From: a virus | Taxonomy: Duplodnaviria; Caudoviricetes | Virus record (IMG/VR): IMGVR_UViG_3300025005_000009 | Location: 1,515 to 65,514 of that record | Direction: 5' to 3' (one strand) | Length of the DNA stretch: 64,000 bases | In this document: positions 1,871 to 64,000 of the stretch, piece after piece | Layout of the letters: each line of letters starts with the position of its first letter | Position numbering within the stretch: position 1 is the first letter of the stretch | Position numbers and translations under genes: made by a program | Notes under the pieces: model-generated | Seen by the model: only the letters and a program-made list of their open reading frames with translations | Databases searched by the model: none | What the model was told of the DNA's origin: nothing

Positions 1871-2104
1871 TCATTCAGAAGTAGATCCAGAATTTGCTCT
1901 CGTGTCATGCTGTCCCCTTTGTCTCCGGTAATGGTTGTGCAATGCTCGGCACCGAAAGCATGTTTTCATGGCAACCGGTGTTTTCCTCGGTCCTTCACAC
2001 ATGAGAAATTGACAGGCAACCCGTTCCAGACACTGTATCAGATCGTCATAGATGGCTTGCTCGGTCTTATTCATCGCATCAGTTCCTTTGCTGAGTGGAC
2101 CCAT
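1871..2104 (-). CDS. hypothetical Cys-containing protein
   Basis: 77-aa ORF with CFRC motif; overlaps neighbours. Confidence 0.4.
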   Translation of the reverse strand: MGPLSKGTDAMNKTEQAIYDDLIQCLERVACQFLMCEGPRKTPVAMKTCFRCRALHNHYRRQRGQHDTRANSGSTSE

Positions 2105-2322
2105 GCCCCGGCACCATTCCAGGGATATTCCCCGGTATCAGTCGCATAGTCGTATTGGTCTTCAATCTTCTGCACCATCTGAGACAGTAAGGGAGTGGCA
2201 TCAGACCGGCACTTCAAGGTAGACTCCATTTCCGCCGCCCAATCGACAACATCTTCCCGGTAATCCGAGTCAATGAGAATTTCTTCAATGAGTAATTCAA
2301 TCGCCTGTGTACGATGTACCAT
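2071..2322 (-). CDS. hypothetical acidic protein
   Basis: 83-aa ORF directly downstream of a consensus sigma70 promoter and GAGGG SD. Confidence 0.65.
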   Translation of the reverse strand: MVHRTQAIELLIEEILIDSDYREDVVDWAAEMESTLKCRSDATPLLSQMVQKIEDQYDYATDTGEYPWNGAGAWVHSAKELMR

Positions 2323-2352
2323 TATTCCCTCACCATTTGCACCATAAGCCAG

Positions 2353-2381
2353 AGTATACTGAGTGAAAATGAGACTGTCAA
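2353..2381 (-). promoter_or_regulatory. sigma70-type promoter
   Basis: Minus strand TTGACA-17 nt-TATACT upstream of ORF starting at 2322. Confidence 0.8.
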
Positions 2382-2417
2382 GACTTCCATTGTTCTTTTG
2401 CTCCTATTCTATAAGAG

Positions 2418-2513
2418 TGACAGAGAAAGGAATCGAACCTTTCAAGCCAAAGGTAGCGAACCCTTGTTGTCAAGTGTTTCTTAGCTCTTGACGCTCGGCA
2501 ACCAGCCCCCACC
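2418..2513 (-). ncRNA. tRNA-like structured RNA (class II-like, degenerate)
   Basis: Canonical T arm AAAGG-TTCGATT-CCTTT; GTCAAG/CTTGAC stem with 12-nt loop; extra AAGG/CCTT hairpin; wobble-rich acceptor; no CCA. Confidence 0.4.
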
Positions 2514-2559
2514 GTATTTTTCTCTCAACGCTCAACCCCTTTATCGTCATCCCTCAGGA

Positions 2560-2751
2560 TTACTTGACAGGTCCCCTCAAAAATATTTGACTGACTTGTT
2601 CCGGTAACATCCCATATTCGCTTTTGAAGATCCGCAAGGCATGGGCTTTGTCTGCTGCCTTGACTTCCTGGTCAAACTCCATCCCCTGGAACCTGTACAC
2701 TATTAAGAACGTACCCCTTTCTCCGGTTGCGTCCCTAGACCCATCGCCCAT
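2560..2751 (-). CDS. hypothetical protein
   Basis: 63-aa ORF; true start probably internal. Confidence 0.5.
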   Translation of the reverse strand: MGDGSRDATGERGTFLIVYRFQGMEFDQEVKAADKAHALRIFKSEYGMLPEQVSQIFLRGPVK

Positions 2752-2936
2752 ACAACATCATCCAGGAAATAGACTGTTTCCCCGCTGAATAAATACATGA
2801 CCAAACCAACCAGGTTTTCCCCTTCATACACGTTATACAATTGCCTATACACCTTCGTAGGAACAAGTACAGGTTTCCAGATACTTTTTGCTTGGCCTGC
2901 TGCTGCAATATACTCTTGTTCGGTGACCGGTCTCAT
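2703..2936 (-). CDS. hypothetical protein
   Basis: 77-aa ORF with AGGAGG SD, downstream of sigma28-like promoter. Confidence 0.65.
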   Translation of the reverse strand: MRPVTEQEYIAAAGQAKSIWKPVLVPTKVYRQLYNVYEGENLVGLVMYLFSGETVYFLDDVVWAMGLGTQPEKGVRS

Positions 2937-2969
2937 GTTTTAACCCTCCTTATGAACTATATAACACCT

Positions 2970-2996
2970 TTATCGGCCTGCTGCTGGAAAACTTGA
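2970..2996 (-). promoter_or_regulatory. sigma28 (FliA)-like promoter 1
   Basis: TCAAGTTT-N11-GCCGATAA. Confidence 0.75.
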
Positions 2997-3089
2997 CAAC
3001 CCTGCCGATGTACGTAGTTACCATTACGCAAAAACCTTGACTTCAAGGTAAGGTCGCTGCTGCTGCTGAGTCCCGTTTAGGACCTGGAA

Positions 3090-3545
3090 GTCTGTTACGC
3101 TGTAACAAAATGGGCATATACCCTGTTACAACTATATTTACTGTTTTCTCCGGGTTACTACGTAGCGTAAAAATGACACGTTACAAAGCCTGCTGTTACA
3201 CTTTTAGAAAGTCGTTTAAAATCCCCTACTTACATAGGTGAGTGTAACGGTATAGGTGTTACACCTAGGGTCAACTACTTACTGCCTTTATTTCCCTTTG
3301 GAATCAAGAGGAATGCCAAGGGGACAGTAGGGACAGTAGGGAAGTTGAGCCATAATTACATAGAAATTATTTCTGTTTGTAACACCGTTACACGATTTTT
3401 ACAAATGAAAATATGACACTCTTAAATATTTAATATGTCTATATGCGTAACAGTGTTACAAAGTAACAAACTACTATAGGCAAAATGGCGCAAGCTTCGG
3501 ACCCTGTTTTAACACCCGGTTAAAGAGGTCAAGGTTACCCGGTAA
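3090..3545. repeat. cluster of GTAAC/GTTAC short inverted repeats (iteron-like)
   Basis: About a dozen or more copies, often as palindromic pairs, e.g. TGTTACGCTGTAACA, TGTAACACCGTTACA, GTAACAGTGTTAC. Confidence 0.65.
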
Positions 3546-3634
3546 ATTTCTACAAACTTGTCGAAGTGATAGACTGCAGCAACCAAGGATAGTAGGAAAT
3601 AGGTATACAATACAATTTTGGCTAATTTTAACAT
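3509..3634 (-). CDS. 41-aa membrane peptide (below ORF-track cutoff)
   Basis: MLKLAKIVLYTYFLLSLVAAVYHFDKFVEIYRVTLTSLTGC; GGAAAGGA SD; one hydrophobic helix. Confidence 0.5.
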   Translation of the reverse strand: MLKLAKIVLYTYFLLSLVAAVYHFDKFVEIYRVTLTSLTGC

Positions 3635-4336
3635 GGTGACGATTCCTTTCCAGTAAAAATTTAAACGGTAGTGTTTCAAATTTTAAAAATTTTCCGTCTC
3701 TGCTGCTGAGTACCTTAGGCTTGCATACCTGCTGCTGCAGGGAAGTTATGCAAGTCTGCTGCTGCAGATATCCCGGTACGTTGATCTTACATAAATTACA
3801 TTAGTAAAAATTCCTTACATGAAAGTTCTTAGTGAGAAACCTTTACCTTAAACTCCCTAATGAAAATGATCTAGTGTGAAATACTTAACCCATATAATTT
3901 CTCCTTTCTTTTCAGTAGGTAATACATTTGACCCTTAATTTCACTGTAAAGGCCTATTCCTTGAGACTTCCCTATAACCCTTGCCTTGATACCTGTTTCC
4001 TGTTTCTCATGCCTTAAAACCTATCCTTGTTGAGAATTTCCGGGTTCAATCCCCGACATACTGCAGACCTTTACACTGTACACAACCAAGGAAATACCTA
4101 GTCAATTTCATCTAAGTATTTTTCATTGTGTGCAAACTGGTCTACAAGGTCCCTTTCCTTTACGTGATTATACTTATCCCATTTTTCGTGTTTGTCTGGT
4201 CTTTTTTGGTAAAGCGTACCTATCCCTCTTGATAGGCTTGACTGACTACCTTTTTACCCTTGTAGCATCGTATCAGGGAAAGGAAAGCAAACCCTATTTA
4301 TTTCCTTTTGGTCTTTTGTCATGGTCAACCCTTTCC

Positions 4337-4591
4337 TTAGTCAATCGCATAAATTTTATAAGCTTCGCATTCTCTGAGAATTTGATAATTTAAATGGATG
4401 TTTCCTTTTCCCTTGTCCACTACAATATAAATTTTTCCGGTTTCCTGAAGTCCACACCTTACGCGTATTAATTCCTCTTCAATCCTTGCTTTGTAGTTCG
4501 GTATCCCTTCAATGTTTTCTATCAATACACTCCCACGTAACAGACCTTTTCCCTTGAGATACTTTTTCCCTTTGCTTAGTGTTTCCTTCAT
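4337..4591 (-). CDS. hypothetical basic protein
   Basis: 84-aa ORF, ATGA overlap with upstream gene stop. Confidence 0.6.
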   Translation of the reverse strand: MKETLSKGKKYLKGKGLLRGSVLIENIEGIPNYKARIEEELIRVRCGLQETGKIYIVVDKGKGNIHLNYQILRECEAYKIYAID

Positions 4592-5421
4592 TGTGCAACC
4601 CTTTCAATCTGGACAAGGAAAGTTGATTGAATAACCTTTCTCTGCCGATGCCCTTTGACTCTCAAGCCCACAATGTAACCCTTTCTATCCTTAAACCTAA
4701 GGTCTGTTAGATCCCCGTCTAATACCGGTTTCCCCATGAATTTTTTCGGTAAAGCTTTTCCCTTGCCTATCCCTGCAAAAGGTACCGCAATATTAATGCC
4801 TCTTGCTCCTATAACTTCGCATGACTCTTGATTATTGCCAGACCATGAAAAGGTAACATCATAATTTTTTATTTCATGGGATTCTAAGGCAATTATCGGG
4901 TTTTTTGTATAGTCATAAAATTGAAGCTTAGGAAACCATGCGAAAATGTTTTGACCTTGATACTTGAGTTTTGACCATCGTATATCAGAGGTACCATTCA
5001 GGCGAATACATAAAGTCAAATTCAATTTTGTAGCAAGCTTTTCATAAGAAACAATTTCTTGCATCATGCAGTAAAGAAAATTTACCCTGTCCGATAAAAA
5101 TCTATCGGTTTTCTTTATCCTTGCCTTTTTGACACTTGGTAATACATCGGACAATCCGCTAGAATTCAAACAATAATCCCTACACTCTGCAGAGGAAAAC
5201 GGGCAAAGGTCTACACCTTGTGAATTCAACGTGCTAGGCGATAAATGGAGAATGAGTGTCAAGTATCCTTTCTTTTCTCCCTTAAGTGTTTTCGTGTTTC
5301 CCCGTGAAAAGATACCATGTCTTTTTGGTTGTATCTCCATTAAGGTTTTTTCCTTTCTACCTCTGAGAAAATACATTCCTTCAATGTTCCACCTTTTGTA
5401 TACATATACATAATTTCCCAC
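4588..5421 (-). CDS. GP88-family phage protein (Cys-triad, putative Fe-S)
   Basis: CPFSSAECRDYC, RLNGTSDI, FYDYTK, DGDLTDLRF motifs; true start may be internal. Confidence 0.7.
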   Translation of the reverse strand: MGNYVYVYKRWNIEGMYFLRGRKEKTLMEIQPKRHGIFSRGNTKTLKGEKKGYLTLILHLSPSTLNSQGVDLCPFSSAECRDYCLNSSGLSDVLPSVKKARIKKTDRFLSDRVNFLYCMMQEIVSYEKLATKLNLTLCIRLNGTSDIRWSKLKYQGQNIFAWFPKLQFYDYTKNPIIALESHEIKNYDVTFSWSGNNQESCEVIGARGINIAVPFAGIGKGKALPKKFMGKPVLDGDLTDLRFKDRKGYIVGLRVKGHRQRKVIQSTFLVQIERVAQ

Positions 5422-5549
5422 TTTGTACCCTGATCTTCATAGAAGATATTTAGACCATTAAACAGATCTAGCATTCTGTTTCTAAAATCTGTTTCACTCT
5501 CATTTGAAGTCCTGGATTTTACCACTCTTGAATATTTCTTTTTTATCAT
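5340..5549 (-). CDS. hypothetical protein
   Basis: 69-aa ORF, translationally coupled to upstream ORF. Confidence 0.5.
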   Translation of the reverse strand: MIKKKYSRVVKSRTSNESETDFRNRMLDLFNGLNIFYEDQGTKWEIMYMYTKGGTLKECIFSEVERKKP

Positions 5550-5758
5550 TCTCCGGTTGTCCCTTCATATGACAAGGTGATTTTATATCTCAGTAGATTT
5601 TTTGTCAGATCATACACATTAAATTTTTTCTTGATATTATCCATTACAATCCAGTTTCTTTTCATTCTTGAAGGTCTGATAAAGTCAAGCTTTAAGAGTA
5701 CCTTATTATCGGTTTCCACTTTAAAACAGTAGTGAAATTTGATTGATTTTTTCCTCAT
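5546..5758 (-). CDS. hypothetical basic protein
   Basis: 70-aa ORF with GGGG SD. Confidence 0.55.
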   Translation of the reverse strand: MRKKSIKFHYCFKVETDNKVLLKLDFIRPSRMKRNWIVMDNIKKKFNVYDLTKNLLRYKITLSYEGTTGE

Positions 5759-5767
5759 ATCATCCCC

Positions 5768-5908
5768 TTACTTGTATAAAGAATCATACCCTGATCGACC
5801 ATAGCCTTTATCTGGATTTTCAGGCGATGGCCATTTCATAACCTTGACTTTTTCAATTTCTCCATTTGACTTTTTTATTTCTTTGACTTCGTAGTTTTGT
5901 TTTTCCAT
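5768..5908 (-). CDS. 46-aa hypothetical protein
   Basis: Own translation MEKQNYEVKEIKKSNGEIEKVKVMKWPSPENPDKGYGRSGYDSLYK; GGAG SD; downstream of promoter 2. Confidence 0.5.
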   Translation of the reverse strand: MEKQNYEVKEIKKSNGEIEKVKVMKWPSPENPDKGYGRSGYDSLYK

Positions 5909-5951
5909 TGTAGTTTCTCCCTTGTGTGAGTGGTTGCCTTTCATGTTTATA

Positions 5952-5978
5952 TTATTGGCATGTTTCCATTTTACTTGA
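5952..5978 (-). promoter_or_regulatory. sigma28-like promoter 2
   Basis: TCAAGTAA-N11-GCCAATAA. Confidence 0.65.
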
Positions 5979-6297
5979 CAAAGGGAAAGGGTAAAATTGA
6001 ATTGATTCTTTTTTGAATGATTTTTTCAACGTCTGAGTAAGTATAACTCGGATCACCATAACAAGGAAACTCAAGAATGCTATGGTGGAATCGGTCAATC
6101 CTTTCTCCGGTTGAAAATTTCTCATGATAAAACCCGTTTTTATTGTAGTGAGCAATGAACCCGAACATCATAGAAAGTCTTACGTAGAACCACTTATAGA
6201 AAAGTGTTTCTTTACATCCTGACTTGATGAACCTTTCAAAGTGCTTTAAGAATTTTTCTTTATCTTCTACGGTACTCCATTGCGTAGCAGTTAACAT
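5971..6297 (-). CDS. hypothetical phage protein
   Basis: 108-aa ORF with aromatic-rich 'MFGFIAHYNKNGFY' motif. Confidence 0.65.
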   Translation of the reverse strand: MLTATQWSTVEDKEKFLKHFERFIKSGCKETLFYKWFYVRLSMMFGFIAHYNKNGFYHEKFSTGERIDRFHHSILEFPCYGDPSYTYSDVEKIIQKRINSILPFPFVK

Positions 6298-6470
6298 TTT
6301 TTATTTTCCTTTTCAACCTTGAGTATGTAAAATTGACTCAAGCTTTCATTGTCGTTAAAAGTATCTCGCAAGTGTTCATAACAACCGGTTCCTAGGTCTT
6401 TTGCTTCGCTTTCATTCTCTGCCTTAACAAGAAATTGAAGATTGATAATATAGTTTTTCATTTTTCCCTT

Positions 6471-6671
6471 TCACGATACTTTTTTGATCAAGTCGTTTTC
6501 CATTGTAACCGTAGCATACCACGTTCTTTTGGTATAGGGACAGGGACCAACAACCGGAAATTTTCCATTGCTCTGATACTCTGCATTGAATAGACTGGTT
6601 TCCACATAACGTAAGCTTTTTCCAATACTGTTTTTCAGGTCTTTTTTAGTTTGATAACTTGCCCCCATCAT
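6471..6671 (-). CDS. conserved small phage protein
   Basis: 'YQTKKDLKNSIGKSLRYVETSLF...RTWYATVTM' resembles a widespread early phage protein of unknown function. Confidence 0.65.
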   Translation of the reverse strand: MMGASYQTKKDLKNSIGKSLRYVETSLFNAEYQSNGKFPVVGPCPYTKRTWYATVTMENDLIKKVS

Positions 6672-6982
6672 AGCGTTATATCCTTTCTTGATAAGTGATT
6701 AGATAGGCACTGCATTCAAAATAAGATCCCTCAAAAACCTTTTCCCCTGTACGCGTATCGACTACTTTATGGTTTGCTTCAAGGTCTGATATCAGGGAAA
6801 ATTTAAACCTTCGTTTAATGTACATTTTTTCCTATCTCCATTGCCCGTTGATAAGAATCAAACCTTTTGCTTTTCCTTGTCGGAGATTGATTGCTAACCG
6901 GATCAAGAAAACTGCTTTGTCAAGGTTTGAATAATCCATTTTCATTTCTCCCTTTTTGTTTATCCCCTCTTGCATACTTATA

Positions 6983-7009
6983 TTATCGGCAAGCTTAGAA
7001 AAACCTTGA
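6983..7009 (-). promoter_or_regulatory. sigma28-like promoter 3
   Basis: TCAAGGTT-N11-GCCGATAA. Confidence 0.75.
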
Positions 7010-7573
7010 GTATTCTTTTTTCTTTCTTTTTTGAAATTTTCTAGCCCATGCCTTTGACAATTCTTGAGAAGATCCTACGATATCAGTCAATATCAAATTT
7101 CCCTTATTATCTACCATTACGTTACGCTTGCAGAGGTCAAGGAAAATATCATCGGTGTAGTTTGCCATCATGTCTATAAGGGTTTTCAAGCTTTCCTTGA
7201 GGTCTTCTGATAAGTCTTCACTCTTTTCAATGGCATTGATACAGGTAGGGAAACAGTCATATTTTCTCAGACTGAGATACTTAAGGGTTTTTTCTACTGC
7301 TTTGTAATCTTCCCATGCCCTGGAATGTTTTTTCATGAGTTTTTGATATAAGGGCATCTTATACGCTTGATATTCGCCGATATCACTCAATCTTTCCATT
7401 TTTGGGATATGTTTTTCCCCTTGGCAAAATGCCCCCATACACTCCTTCGCATTGTCGTTAGTCAGTATTATAACTTCAGTTTCCGATACCTTGAAGACTT
7501 TAGAAAATAATCCCTGTCCAATCTGGTTTTTCTTGTCAAGTCTTATATGGTCTTCTACTGTCCAGTATGGCAT
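6995..7573 (-). CDS. protein kinase-like, T7 gp0.7 catalytic-domain-like
   Basis: Gly loop IGQGLFSKVF, catalytic loop DLCKRNVM, metal-binding LTDIV. Confidence 0.6.
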   Translation of the reverse strand: MPYWTVEDHIRLDKKNQIGQGLFSKVFKVSETEVIILTNDNAKECMGAFCQGEKHIPKMERLSDIGEYQAYKMPLYQKLMKKHSRAWEDYKAVEKTLKYLSLRKYDCFPTCINAIEKSEDLSEDLKESLKTLIDMMANYTDDIFLDLCKRNVMVDNKGNLILTDIVGSSQELSKAWARKFQKRKKKEYSRFF

Positions 7574-7603
7574 GGTGTTTTTCTCCTTTCCTTGTTGCGT
7601 ATA

Positions 7604-7630
7604 TTATCGGCAGTCAACCGGATAACTTGA
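7604..7630 (-). promoter_or_regulatory. sigma28-like promoter 4 (upstream of kinase)
   Basis: TCAAGTTA-N11-GCCGATAA. Confidence 0.75.
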
Positions 7631-7794
7631 CTTAGTATTCAATGTTTATTGAATAATGCCCTATTACATTCCCGTTAAGGTCCCAAACCTTACCATCAAG
7701 CTTTCCTTTCTTCATAAGCTTGATAATTGATTCAACGGTTTCTATAGCAGTTTCAACCGGAGTATTTAAAAAATAATCATTCCCCATAGAAAAC

Positions 7795-8037
7795 TCAATT
7801 TTTAACATCGTTATTTTCTCCCTTCATTTCACTGTCAAATAAATAAAGCTTTGAAGAAATTTCTTGCAGGTTGACACCTTCAAAAACCCTGTATTTATGA
7901 TCGTATTTTGTGCTAGCTTGCCATCCCCTGTTATACTTTTGGATCTTCCAAACCTTACCGGCACTATATCCCACGTAATCCCCTGGATTGAAATAACTTT
8001 TGTCAATGTTCGGATAATTTCTCATTCTGTATCCCAT
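7795..8037 (-). CDS. hypothetical protein
   Basis: 80-aa ORF with AGGAG SD, first gene of leftward module. Confidence 0.6.
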   Translation of the reverse strand: MGYRMRNYPNIDKSYFNPGDYVGYSAGKVWKIQKYNRGWQASTKYDHKYRVFEGVNLQEISSKLYLFDSEMKGENNDVKN

Positions 8038-8075
8038 GGTGTTTTTCTCCTTTTGTTTTTTCCTTGTTGTTTATC

Positions 8076-8102
8076 TTATCGGTATCCTACGGAAAACCTT
8101 GA
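8076..8102 (-). promoter_or_regulatory. sigma28-like promoter 5
   Basis: TCAAGGTT-N11-ACCGATAA; overlapped by minus-strand TTGACA-17-TAGGAT (8084-8112). Confidence 0.7.
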
Positions 8103-8895
8103 CAGGTGTCAAGAGTTATTTTTAAATTATTTTTTCCTTGACCTTTAATAATGATAGCAAGAATCGTGCCTATGGTGCGCGCCTTCCTACTGCAGCGAAT
8201 TTGCAAAACAACCTTACTGTCTTCTACTTACGTATTTCATACTACATACTTCATACTACGTATTTCCCTATTACATATAACTACATACGCCATAATTTCA
8301 TAACGAGTCTTCGCTTGCAAGTCCTGTGCCTATCTTCCCATGCAAGACTTATGCCCGGTTCTAACCTACTGTCTTCTACTTACATAATCTTCCCTACGTA
8401 TTTACCCTATCTACTTAAGTAGTTTACTCTATGAGCGTTTCCGCTCTATGCAACAACTATACCATGTGGTAATTTCGTGTAACATGTAACAACGTGATGC
8501 AAGTACACAACAGTAGGTGCGGTATCGCTCAGTGTCGATTATCCTTACTGGCGTTTACTGGCATGAATAGTGCATTAGAATAACAACGTACACTAACTTA
8601 CATGATGAATATCATATAATATCATATATATCAATACATTATGACATAACGTATAATAATGGAGATCATTATTATGTAGTCGGATTATTATATAGGTGTT
8701 ATTATATAGTTTTGTATGGTAATATACACGAATACACAACATAATGTAGTAACGTGCATCAACGTACATTAACAGAGGGGAAGGGAGTGTTCAAAATTCC
8801 GACAGGTACCCCCTATCACCTATACCTGCCTCCTTGCCAAACTACCGAAAAATTAAAAGGTTTTTGTGTTTACAAGAAAGTACCTACGTGGATAC

Positions 8896-8924
8896 TTGAC
8901 TTTTCATTGTAGTAGACTTATCTT
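8896..8924 (+). promoter_or_regulatory. sigma70-type promoter for HNH gene
   Basis: TTGACT-17-TATCTT followed by TATAGG; similar copy TTGACT...TATCTATATAGG at 9652-9685. Confidence 0.55.
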
Positions 8925-8952
8925 TATAGGGTACAAAAATTAAGGAGGAAGT

Positions 8953-9405
8953 ATGGCAAGCGTATTGGAAAGATTTTTAAGAAAAGTTGTAAAAGGGGGT
9001 AATGAAGACGACTGTTGGGGTTGGACAGCATGCAAGAACGACTATGGACATGGGCTACTGTTTGCATGGGGAAGAACAGAAGGTGCCCACAGAGTATCGT
9101 ATAGGCTCTTTAACGGCCACATCCCTACTGGCGCATGTGTTAGGCACACCTGCGACAATGGGCCTTGCTCAAACCCAAAGCATTTGATATTGGGGACATC
9201 TCATCAAAATGTCCAAGACAGAGTAGAAAGAGGAAGATCAAAGGGCGCAACAAGGAAGTCCTCAGGAAATGTAGAGAAGATAACAAAAGAGCAAAAAAGA
9301 GTTATCTTTGAAGAGTTTAGACATGGTACATCGCTCTTCAGGTTAACAAAGAAATTCAACTTAACAGAGTGTGAGGTTATTGATATAGTTCACGAGACGG
9401 CGTAA
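8953..9405 (+). CDS. HNH endonuclease (HNH_3-like)
   Basis: CWGWTA...AHRVSYRLFNGHIP...VRHTCDNGPCSNPKHLILGT..N; AGGAGG SD. Confidence 0.9.
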   Translation: MASVLERFLRKVVKGGNEDDCWGWTACKNDYGHGLLFAWGRTEGAHRVSYRLFNGHIPTGACVRHTCDNGPCSNPKHLILGTSHQNVQDRVERGRSKGATRKSSGNVEKITKEQKRVIFEEFRHGTSLFRLTKKFNLTECEVIDIVHETA

Positions 9406-63175: not shown

Positions 63176-63326
63176 TGGTCGGGAAGACAGGTAGTTTTAG
63201 GGATTTCACCAATTTTCATCGAGACCGGGTTGTCCGGGTTTGCCGGGAACGGTCTGGATATCTCTCCTATATCAAGCTGTATCTCCGGCTCCTATAGCCG
63301 TTGTGCTGCTCTTACACCACTCCCCG
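63176..63326 (-). tRNA. tRNA-Pro-like RNA with about 75-nt insertion in the T loop
   Basis: Acceptor CGGGGAG/CTTCCCG-A-CCA, D stem GTGT/GCAC, anticodon arm ACGGC-TATAGGA-GCCGG, T stem ACAG/CTGT separated by a long structured insert. Confidence 0.55.
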
Positions 63327-63343: not shown

Positions 63344-63415
63344 TAACCTCAAGAGGATTCGAACCTCTATCACCAGTTCCGCGCCTGTTGTATTGCCTTA
63401 TTAGACGACGAGGCT
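63344..63415 (-). tRNA. atypical tRNA (anticodon CGG or GCG; non-U33)
   Basis: Acceptor AGCCTCG/TGAGGTT, T arm AGAGG-TTCGAAT-CCTCT; mismatched anticodon stem; no CCA. Confidence 0.5.
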
Positions 63416-63702
63416 GTAGTTGATAACAGTGTGGGTTTTAACCGCGGCGCATAACATCGCCCCTTCCCGGTTTTTATGCTGCGGTCCGTTCCGAGGCCCT
63501 TCTCCGGGCCAGGCGATTCTCCGGGTCCAGATATCACGATCTCTTTATCCCCGGATTCTGGTTCGGTCATTTCATATCGTAAATTTTTCTTCGCCATGTC
63601 TTCGTAATCCTTAATTTTCACGACGTTCCAGACAACCATTTCATCATCTTCAATCTCGAAGATTGTATTGGTGTTTGGTCCTCTTATAACAAATTCCTTC
63701 AT
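63370..63702 (-). CDS. hypothetical protein within the tRNA-like cluster
   Basis: AAGGGG SD; 3' end overlaps tRNA-like element, so C-terminal half is uncertain. Confidence 0.4.
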   Translation of the reverse strand: MKEFVIRGPNTNTIFEIEDDEMVVWNVVKIKDYEDMAKKNLRYEMTEPESGDKEIVISGPGESPGPEKGLGTDRSIKTGKGRCYAPRLKPTLLSTTASSSNKAIQQARNW

Positions 63703-63718
63703 AAGATTTTCCCCTTAT

Positions 63719-63791
63719 TGGTGGAGGCTTAGGAATCAAACCTAATCACCCTACCGGGCCTTGCTTCCCTCGGATGCCGTTCAGGTCCCCC
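63719..63791 (-). ncRNA. tRNA-like RNA with 3' ACCA and aberrant core
   Basis: T arm TTAGG-TTTGATT-CCTAA, ends GCCTCCACCA; 5' GGGGG; no canonical D or anticodon arm. Confidence 0.45.
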
Positions 63792-63799
63792 ACATCATT

Positions 63800-63867
63800 T
63801 GGTGAAGGGGGCAGGAATTGAACCTGCCATCGTCATACCTATCAGGCAACGCTCACCATGCCCCCTC
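63800..63867 (-). ncRNA. short (68-nt) tRNA-like RNA with 3' ACCA
   Basis: Acceptor GAGGGGG/CCCCTTC, T arm GCAGG-TTCAATT-CCTGC; only 33 nt between acceptor and T stem. Confidence 0.55.
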
Positions 63868-63871
63868 ATTT

Positions 63872-64000
63872 TTACACCAATTCGGCTTTCGTCCATACGC
63901 TGATGAACCGGCCTTTGTTCGATGGCACAGTCGACCGAACGAATCCGATCTTTTTGAACCGGCGATCTGCGAACACATAAGCCAAGGCATGACCAGAGAT
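63872..64000 (-). CDS. C-terminal fragment of a gene entering from outside the window
   Basis: Open frame ...KGRFISVWTKAELV*. Confidence 0.5.
   Translation of the reverse strand: MSGHALAYVFADRRFKKIGFVRSTVPSNKGRFISVWTKAELV

Follow-up and report, generated by a model that had tools for sequence, protein, structure and literature searches.

The window analysed here is a stretch of 64,000 nucleotides that corresponds to bases 1515-65514 of a 65.5-kb IMG/VR virus record, which is estimated to be 91% complete; the end of the window is also the end of the contig. The sequence was recovered from groundwater metagenomes and belongs to an uncultured tailed phage encoding a terminase, a portal protein, an HK97-type capsid and its own replication genes. 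Its capsid is less than 30% identical to the capsid of any isolated phage. Towards its end, the window carries a minus-strand cluster of tRNA and tRNA-like genes, and at the 3' end of this cluster, co-oriented with all neighbouring genes, a tRNA-shaped element of 151 nt is found directly in front of a gene for a Prs/Adps-like protein. A homologue of the element is carried by a 1845-bp JGI metagenome contig (hereafter L013), which was found by a scan with the Prs-like protein. In minus-strand order, the locus is composed as follows:

63867-63800 and about 63792-63718, minus strand: two CCA-ending elements consisting of acceptor and T arms only
Next in order, minus strand: a small ORF
63524-63420, minus strand: a conserved non-coding block
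63415-63344, minus strand: a weak tRNA-Pro(CGG), 30.4 bits
63326-63176, minus strand: the tRNA-shaped element
63175-63158, minus strand: a spacer of 15 nt (20 nt in L013) containing the Shine-Dalgarno sequence AAGGAA, followed by the start codon ATG of the Prs/Adps-like gene
63160-62363, minus strand: the Prs/Adps-like gene, starting 15 nt past the element
Onwards to about 56800, minus strand: genes for a Nampt-like protein, an RNA ligase, a split RlaP nucleotidyltransferase, a DUF6915 protein and a phosphoesterase

A search of the minus strand found nothing resembling a promoter or a terminator that would separate the tRNA cluster, the element and the downstream genes. The RNA ligase, RlaP nucleotidyltransferase and phosphoesterase genes are located 2.4-6 kb downstream of the element. 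Members of the RlaP family add 1-2 nt to damaged RNA 3' ends (PMC12776372), and phage RNA-repair and NAD+ modules have been read as counter-defence (PMC7824862). The RlaP-family nucleotidyltransferase of this phage (58591-59540, minus strand) is represented by two overlapping ORFs matching the N- and C-terminal parts of phrog_388, a split that could reflect a frameshift, programmed or not. No CCA-adding enzyme is encoded in the 65.5-kb record. The sole tRNA called in the region, tRNA-Pro(CGG) at 63344-63415, is marginal (30.4 bits against a cut-off of 29), has G33 and a mismatched anticodon stem, and is overlapped by a 110-aa ORF; related strains carry a diverged copy of it together with a tandem duplication with a 38-nt spacer, in which the joint goes back 67 positions.

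The anatomy of the element is given below, where idx denotes the position within the element and the window coordinate equals 63327 minus idx:

63176-63326, minus strand: the whole element, a tRNA-shaped structured RNA of 151 nt from C1 to the encoded ACCA, supported by its sequence and by the homologue L013:357-509
63320-63326, minus strand: 5' strand of P1, CGGGGAG (idx 1-7), acceptor-type, pairing with 63180-63186
63303-63319, minus strand: D-type hairpin, U8 and G9 followed by GUGU/GCAC with the 7-nt loop AAGAGCA; two registers are possible
63285-63301, minus strand: anticodon-type hairpin, CGGC/GCCG with the loop UAUAGGA (UUCGGU in L013); the stem is kept, the loop is not
63277-63284, minus strand: linker AGAU and 5' strand of P4, ACAG (idx 47-50), at the T-stem position, with its partner at 63187-63190
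63260-63279, minus strand: conserved block 1, CAGCUUGAUAUAGGAGAGAU, covering the end of P4, an internal loop, the 5' strand of P5 and the junction; identical in L013
63210-63259, minus strand: variable apex of 50 nt (52 nt in L013), in which the sequence is replaced and pairing is kept
63194-63209, minus strand: conserved block 2, GUGAAAUCCCUAAAAC, covering the junction, the 3' strand of P5 and the internal loop; identical in L013
63187-63190, minus strand: 3' strand of P4, CUGU (idx 137-140), directly abutting the 3' strand of P1, as a T stem does
63180-63186, minus strand: 3' strand of P1, CUUCCCG (idx 141-147), pyrimidine-rich
63176-63179, minus strand: the ACCA tail (GCCA in L013)

The acceptor-type helix P1 has 7 bp, including one G-U pair, and is followed by ACCA. 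The acceptor helix with C1-G72, A73 and an encoded CCA, which the first-pass annotation of this DNA had read as tRNA-Pro identity features, is present in the window copy, and so is the anticodon-type loop TATAGGA with A33 that it described, on a stem of about 4-5 bp. Its description of an intact D arm holds in part: both homologues can adopt a tRNA register of 4 bp, one of them a U-G pair in the window copy, but RNAfold prefers the longer second register in both. The third arm departs from that of a tRNA. Here the 4-bp P4, a T-type stem, encloses 86 nt (idx 51-136) in place of a T loop, and the position equivalent to 53:61 is a C-C mismatch, not G53-C61. The T loop is indeed replaced, as had been proposed, but by more than the insert of about 75 nt given at that time, the part closed by TAGG(A)GA/TCCCTA amounting to 72 nt. 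The arm that takes the place of the T hairpin comprises 94 nt in all and consists of P4, the C-C mismatch, a short second helix, a conserved 3x3 internal loop, the 6-bp helix P5 with a bulged A, a purine-rich junction and two fast-evolving hairpins as its variable tips. All the inner helices listed for the window copy in the earlier description are found in the sequence, namely AGACCG/CGGTCT with its enclosed hairpin (inner CCGG/CCGG), CGAT-GAAA-ATTG and TAGG/CCTA.

Two tertiary contacts suggested by short motifs were considered. UAUAGG/CCUAAA resembles the 11-nt GAAA-tetraloop receptor but differs from it by an extra A that forms ordinary pairs, and L013 does not retain the GAAA loop; the resemblance is no more than a lead. 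Kissing of the anticodon-type loop with the apical loops was abandoned, since the loops are complementary in L013 (UUCG/CGAA) and not in the window.

The main support for the element comes from comparison of the two copies. The homologue at L013:357-509 is 153 nt long and ends 20 nt before the start codon of the L013 Prs protein, which is 61% identical to the Prs/Adps-like protein of the window, while the DNA upstream of the element differs between the two phages. Both CAGCUUGAUAUAGGAGAGAU (20 nt) and GUGAAAUCCCUAAAAC (16 nt) are 100% identical in the two copies, the adjoining coding DNA being 62-76% identical. None of the 26 core pairs is lost, and 98% of cells are paired, compared with 36-48% when the partners are slid. 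Among the stem changes from the window to L013, two are double compensatory and two are one-sided, and every stem substitution preserves pairing. In P1, pair 5 changes from G-U to A-U and pair 6 from A-U to G-C; the first P4 pair changes from A-U to C-G with both sides altered; U13-G of the D-type stem becomes C13-G; C-G replaces an A-G mismatch at the base of the anticodon-type stem; and a 1-nt insertion in L013 adds a pair in the longer D-type register. Compensatory changes in P1 and P4, seen against this one homologue, bear out the covariation among homologous loci that had been set as a check on the first reading. The apex has turned over completely: 52 unrelated nt in L013 again form a long and a short hairpin, the long one being AGACCG..CGGUCU in the window and CGAGUAC..GUACUCG in L013, accompanied by either the short hairpin or a 3-4 bp extension across a C-C mismatch. 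The G-U pairs fit the minus strand only, which assigns the element to that strand.

On its own, the window copy is not exceptional in its folding (z = -0.94, with 33 of 200 shuffles folding equally well). The minimum-energy fold of L013 has the same architecture, with z = -2.91. The covariation score of the two sequences was reached by 132 of 500 shuffles, a statistic that is thin because the family has two known members; shuffle statistics of two sequences carry no weight, and the case rests on the pattern of change. Judged by that pattern, the comparison of the two sequences demonstrates an element that exists, is conserved, has covarying helices and is devoid of tRNA decoding features. The invariant internal loops of the arm look like a putative binding site.

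An assembly artefact had been named as a possible source of the insert. DNA contigs from three other groundwater runs extend colinearly through the element and differ from it at 0 (X3), 1 (X4) and 0 (X5) positions; no joint was found inside the element in any of them. The one substitution, 63214 T>G in run X4, is located in the GAAA loop. With the same sequence recovered independently in the assemblies of three groundwater runs, the element is not an assembly artefact. No insert-free allele was found in four runs. No RNA run was found among the sequencing runs listed as carrying the sequence. The surroundings of the element are more fluid. In run X3, one contig joins 63524 directly to 63874, leaving out both of the CCA-ending elements together with the beginning of the small ORF, and L013 has an ordinary tRNA-Asp at the place corresponding to window 63525-63873. 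Taken together, these two observations indicate that 63525-63873 was gained or lost between strains and that the element at 63176-63326 stayed.

Searches for known relatives of the element returned nothing convincing. ARAGORN, run with default and lowered thresholds and in intron, mitochondrial and tmRNA modes, made no call at 63176-63326, and Rfam 15, with gathering and lax E-value thresholds, gave nothing but chance-level hits that differed between the two homologues; these scans, which had been recommended with the tRNA-Pro reading, did not support it. No match to the 1.1-kb region was found by blastn in 50,697 phage records, and the element is absent from 80 other phage Prs loci. Prs-like and Nampt-like relatives in IMG/VR are 41-58% identical and are without the element, and capsid relatives there are short fragments that do not reach the element region. 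Six contigs hold the identical Prs protein, and many contigs hold relatives with 43-48% identity. Exact-pattern scans of viral and genome contigs yielded nothing, or chance hits that were rejected by R1, a covariance model built from the window and L013 copies, which gives 190.6 and 197.4 bits for the two sequences it was trained on. Over about 0.9 Mb of loci and 151 Patescibacteria genomes, R1 recovered just the window and L013 members. Two hits of 12-13 bits in the 151 genomes, with no tRNA nearby, were taken as chance, including the 13-bit local match at L166:1501-1572 (AGAUUCAGCUUGAGAUGG...).

The element resembles a tRNA in considerable detail. Its layout of 7 bp, 2 nt, 4 bp, 1 nt, 5 bp, 4 nt and then a stem abutting the acceptor strand matches the tRNA core, with linkers of 2, 1, 4 and 0 nt between the helices, at D-arm and anticodon-arm spacing. 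The tRNA-like positions include U8, G10, Y11-R24, a 13-22 wobble pair, A14, A21, A15 opposite U48 and a 4-nt variable loop. Such detail, as far as the sequence can tell, exceeds what an unrelated four-way junction should share with a tRNA. At the end of the molecule, a 7-bp acceptor stem, a discriminator and CCA are present, although the tail may instead pair with a leader: a conserved 5' leader, GGUC, can pair with G72-R73-C74-C75, and the change from A73 to G73 keeps this pairing, so that the "CCA end" may belong to a longer closing helix and not to a tRNA 3' end. The parts of a tRNA that decode and that form the elbow are missing. Where a conserved 7-nt anticodon loop with U33 would be expected, A33 is found in the window and the 6-nt UUCGGU in L013, and the 7-nt T loop (T54-Psi55-C56 ... 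A58) has given way to the 86 nt within P4. Identity as tRNA-Pro, proposed from C1-G72 and A73, is weak; C1-G72 is kept in both copies, but their discriminators differ, with A in the window copy and G in L013.

These results do not support the idea that an intervening sequence is removed from the T loop and the nearby ligase joins the halves into a tRNA-Pro of about 76 nt. A functional tRNA (Pro or Leu) restored in this way would make sense of the RNA ligase, RlaP nucleotidyltransferase and phosphoesterase genes downstream and of the intact acceptor stem and CCA. It is scarcely credible, however, in view of the unconserved anticodon loop and of 16 in-silico splice variants (8 per homologue), none of which ARAGORN recognised as a tRNA, even when its threshold was lowered. 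The insert has no T-loop consensus at its flanks, and a T loop cannot be rebuilt from them; the element matches no group I intron, other intron or ribozyme family in Rfam; and inspection of the insert junctions revealed no bulge-helix-bulge (3-4-3) motif. Furthermore, the "insert" contains the most conserved nucleotides of the element, a distribution contrary to that expected for an intron. We conclude that the "insert" is no intron and that the element is no decoding tRNA. A small protein-less mobile insertion in the T loop of a tRNA gene is another proposal, for which it can be said that the insert is itself a three-helix module. We regard it as very improbable, given that the element occurs as a single copy in the 65.5-kb record, that R1 finds nothing convincing in the Patescibacteria genomes and that all four runs are free of an insert-free allele. 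Nor is there a flanking duplicate of the neighbouring tRNA 3' end, the tail of tRNA-Pro differing from that of the element, and full D-type and anticodon-type hairpins are present rather than a bare minihelix. It is also improbable, to a slightly lesser degree, that the element is a decaying tRNA pseudogene with a T-loop insertion, passively carried and conserved-looking merely through the relatedness of the phages. Its neighbours are aberrant as well (the tRNA-Pro with G33 and the two elements reduced to acceptor and T arms), its anticodon loop is degenerate and only two members are known, all of which would be in keeping with decay. On the other hand, decay does not account for conserved blocks that are identical next to clearly diverged coding DNA, for stem substitutions that all keep pairing, two of them double changes, for apical hairpins that still pair after complete turnover, or for an element that stays in place while the neighbouring tRNA-like elements and the small ORF come and go between strains.

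A more serious competitor is a cis-acting leader or riboswitch-like element of the adps-namat operon, although we still consider it unlikely. According to this proposal, the "acceptor" is P1 of a four-way-junction aptamer, the conserved internal loops and junction bind a ligand or a protein, and P1 gates the ribosome-binding site 10-15 nt downstream. The element always stands right before the start codon, by 15 nt in the window and 20 nt in L013, even though the upstream DNA differs; this fixed position fits a cis-acting role equally well as a role in trans. Conservation is concentrated in junctions and internal loops and the peripheral hairpins are variable, as in an aptamer, and pairing between leader and trailer could lengthen P1. 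In addition, the 3' strand of P1 (CUUCC in the window, CCUCC in L013) is complementary to the Shine-Dalgarno sequence (GGAA in the window, GAGG in L013). The resulting hairpins are weak (-1.0 and -5.7 kcal/mol), however, compared with a 7-bp, G+C-rich P1 that forms first, and a switch that sequesters the Shine-Dalgarno sequence was rejected on the ground that these alternative hairpins are too weak. The leader proposal is further disfavoured by the lack of a match of either copy to a riboswitch or leader family in Rfam, by the lack of a terminator, and by the 80 other phage Prs loci that do without the element. The linker lengths and the conserved U8, A14, A21 and R15-Y48 also match a tRNA core beyond what an unrelated aptamer would be expected to do.

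We therefore favour, as on balance probable, a structured-RNA gene that descended from a tRNA gene and gives rise to a processed tRNA mimic with a partner-docking arm; the tRNA ancestry, the processing and the action in trans are all inferred. The suggestion in the first-pass annotation that the locus might encode a tRNA-derived decoy or scaffold RNA has fared best of its proposals, as it fits the conserved tRNA-like core geometry together with the conserved arm. Under this model, the element would be transcribed together with the phage tRNA cluster, adps/namat and the RNA-repair genes, and would be excised by host tRNA-end enzymes, with RNase P cutting at C1 and 3' trimming proceeding back to RCCA. 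In an RNA that lacks the T loop, it is uncertain that RNase P would recognise the tRNA elbow. The same excision would also make the 5' end of the adps mRNA, 15-20 nt before the start codon. The released RNA would persist as a tRNA mimic, and its conserved irregular arm would serve as the docking site for a partner. This partner might come from the phage, as an RNA-repair protein, or from the host, as a factor sensing or attacking tRNA. Ro60 and a CCA-adding enzyme were discarded as candidate partners, since the record encodes neither.

Several known RNAs invite comparison with the element. Like canonical tRNA (RF00005), it has a 7-bp acceptor stem with RCCA, two hairpins at D and anticodon spacing, a third stem abutting the acceptor 3' strand, the nucleotides U8, A14, A21, G10 and Y11-R24, a 4-nt variable loop and a location in a tRNA cluster. 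It differs from RF00005 in the 86-nt conserved stretch that stands for the T loop and in its non-canonical, unconserved anticodon loop, and it is detected neither by ARAGORN nor by the tRNA covariance model, lax thresholds included. RNAC and RNAD (species 1 and 2) of phage T4 are small RNAs from the T4 tRNA region whose role is unknown (PMC3014915). The element is likewise a small non-tRNA RNA inside a phage tRNA gene cluster; it has no blastn similarity to them in the 50,697 phage records, which should include T4, and the likeness noted is one of location. Y RNAs of the YrlA type are tRNA mimics that RNase P can cleave and that have been linked to loci for RNA repair (PMC4201824). A non-decoding tRNA mimic is what bacterial and phage Y RNAs have in common with the element, but the ends of YrlA form a Ro60-binding stem at the place of the anticodon stem and its T arm is present, whereas the ends of the element form an acceptor helix and its T loop is replaced. 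With this difference in topology, no Rfam match and no Ro60/TROVE domain encoded in the 65.5-kb record (91% complete), a Y RNA of the YrlA kind was rejected. The tRNA-like domain of tmRNA also has an acceptor stem and ACCA closing a much larger RNA, but tmRNA keeps its T arm and has a tag reading frame and pseudoknots; the tmRNA search of ARAGORN and the tmRNA models of Rfam find nothing at the element, and this candidate was dismissed as well. Neither Rfam nor the literature searched yielded a tRNA-shaped RNA with a conserved arm in place of the T loop.

A bolder proposal, which we put forward tentatively and consider rather doubtful, is that the element represents a previously undescribed class of phage tRNA mimics, in which the T loop, part of the tRNA elbow, has been turned into a conserved binding arm. 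Such an RNA might work by titration of a host factor that detects or attacks tRNA; alternatively, it might be a sensor of a metabolite or protein that thereby switches on adps-namat and the RNA-repair genes. Either action, if true, would tie the tRNA scaffold directly to counter-defence. Phage tRNA clusters are increasingly read as counter-defence equipment, and odd tRNA-like genes within them are usually ignored because tRNA finders skip them. Here, the operon for NAD+ reconstitution and RNA repair is headed by a conserved and clearly non-decoding element. Action as a decoy, scaffold or sensor would amount to a new phage use of the tRNA fold, and in that case the element, a 151-nt RNA with clear mutational targets, would also be a tractable subject. 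A role as no more than a processing signal or leader would make it a minor curiosity.

A second conserved non-coding block is located upstream of the element at 63420-63524 on the minus strand and is 78% identical to L013:173-290. Its hairpin GGCCC-GGAGAA-GGGCC changes to GGACC-AGAGAA-GGUCC in L013, which is a compensatory change. In the window, the block lies inside the 110-aa ORF (63702-63370); in L013, the frame is not kept and no ORF start is possible there. The block is probably an RNA and not a protein, and a YUAAAAC motif is common to it and the element. Elsewhere in the window, positions 2000-9000 have a G+C content of 36-42%, compared with about 48% in the rest, and few ORFs of at least 100 aa; this region may consist of small early genes or foreign DNA. 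On an unrelated phage contig, a 93-nt tRNA-Ile(UAU) at L007:1877-1969 adjoins a Nampt gene.
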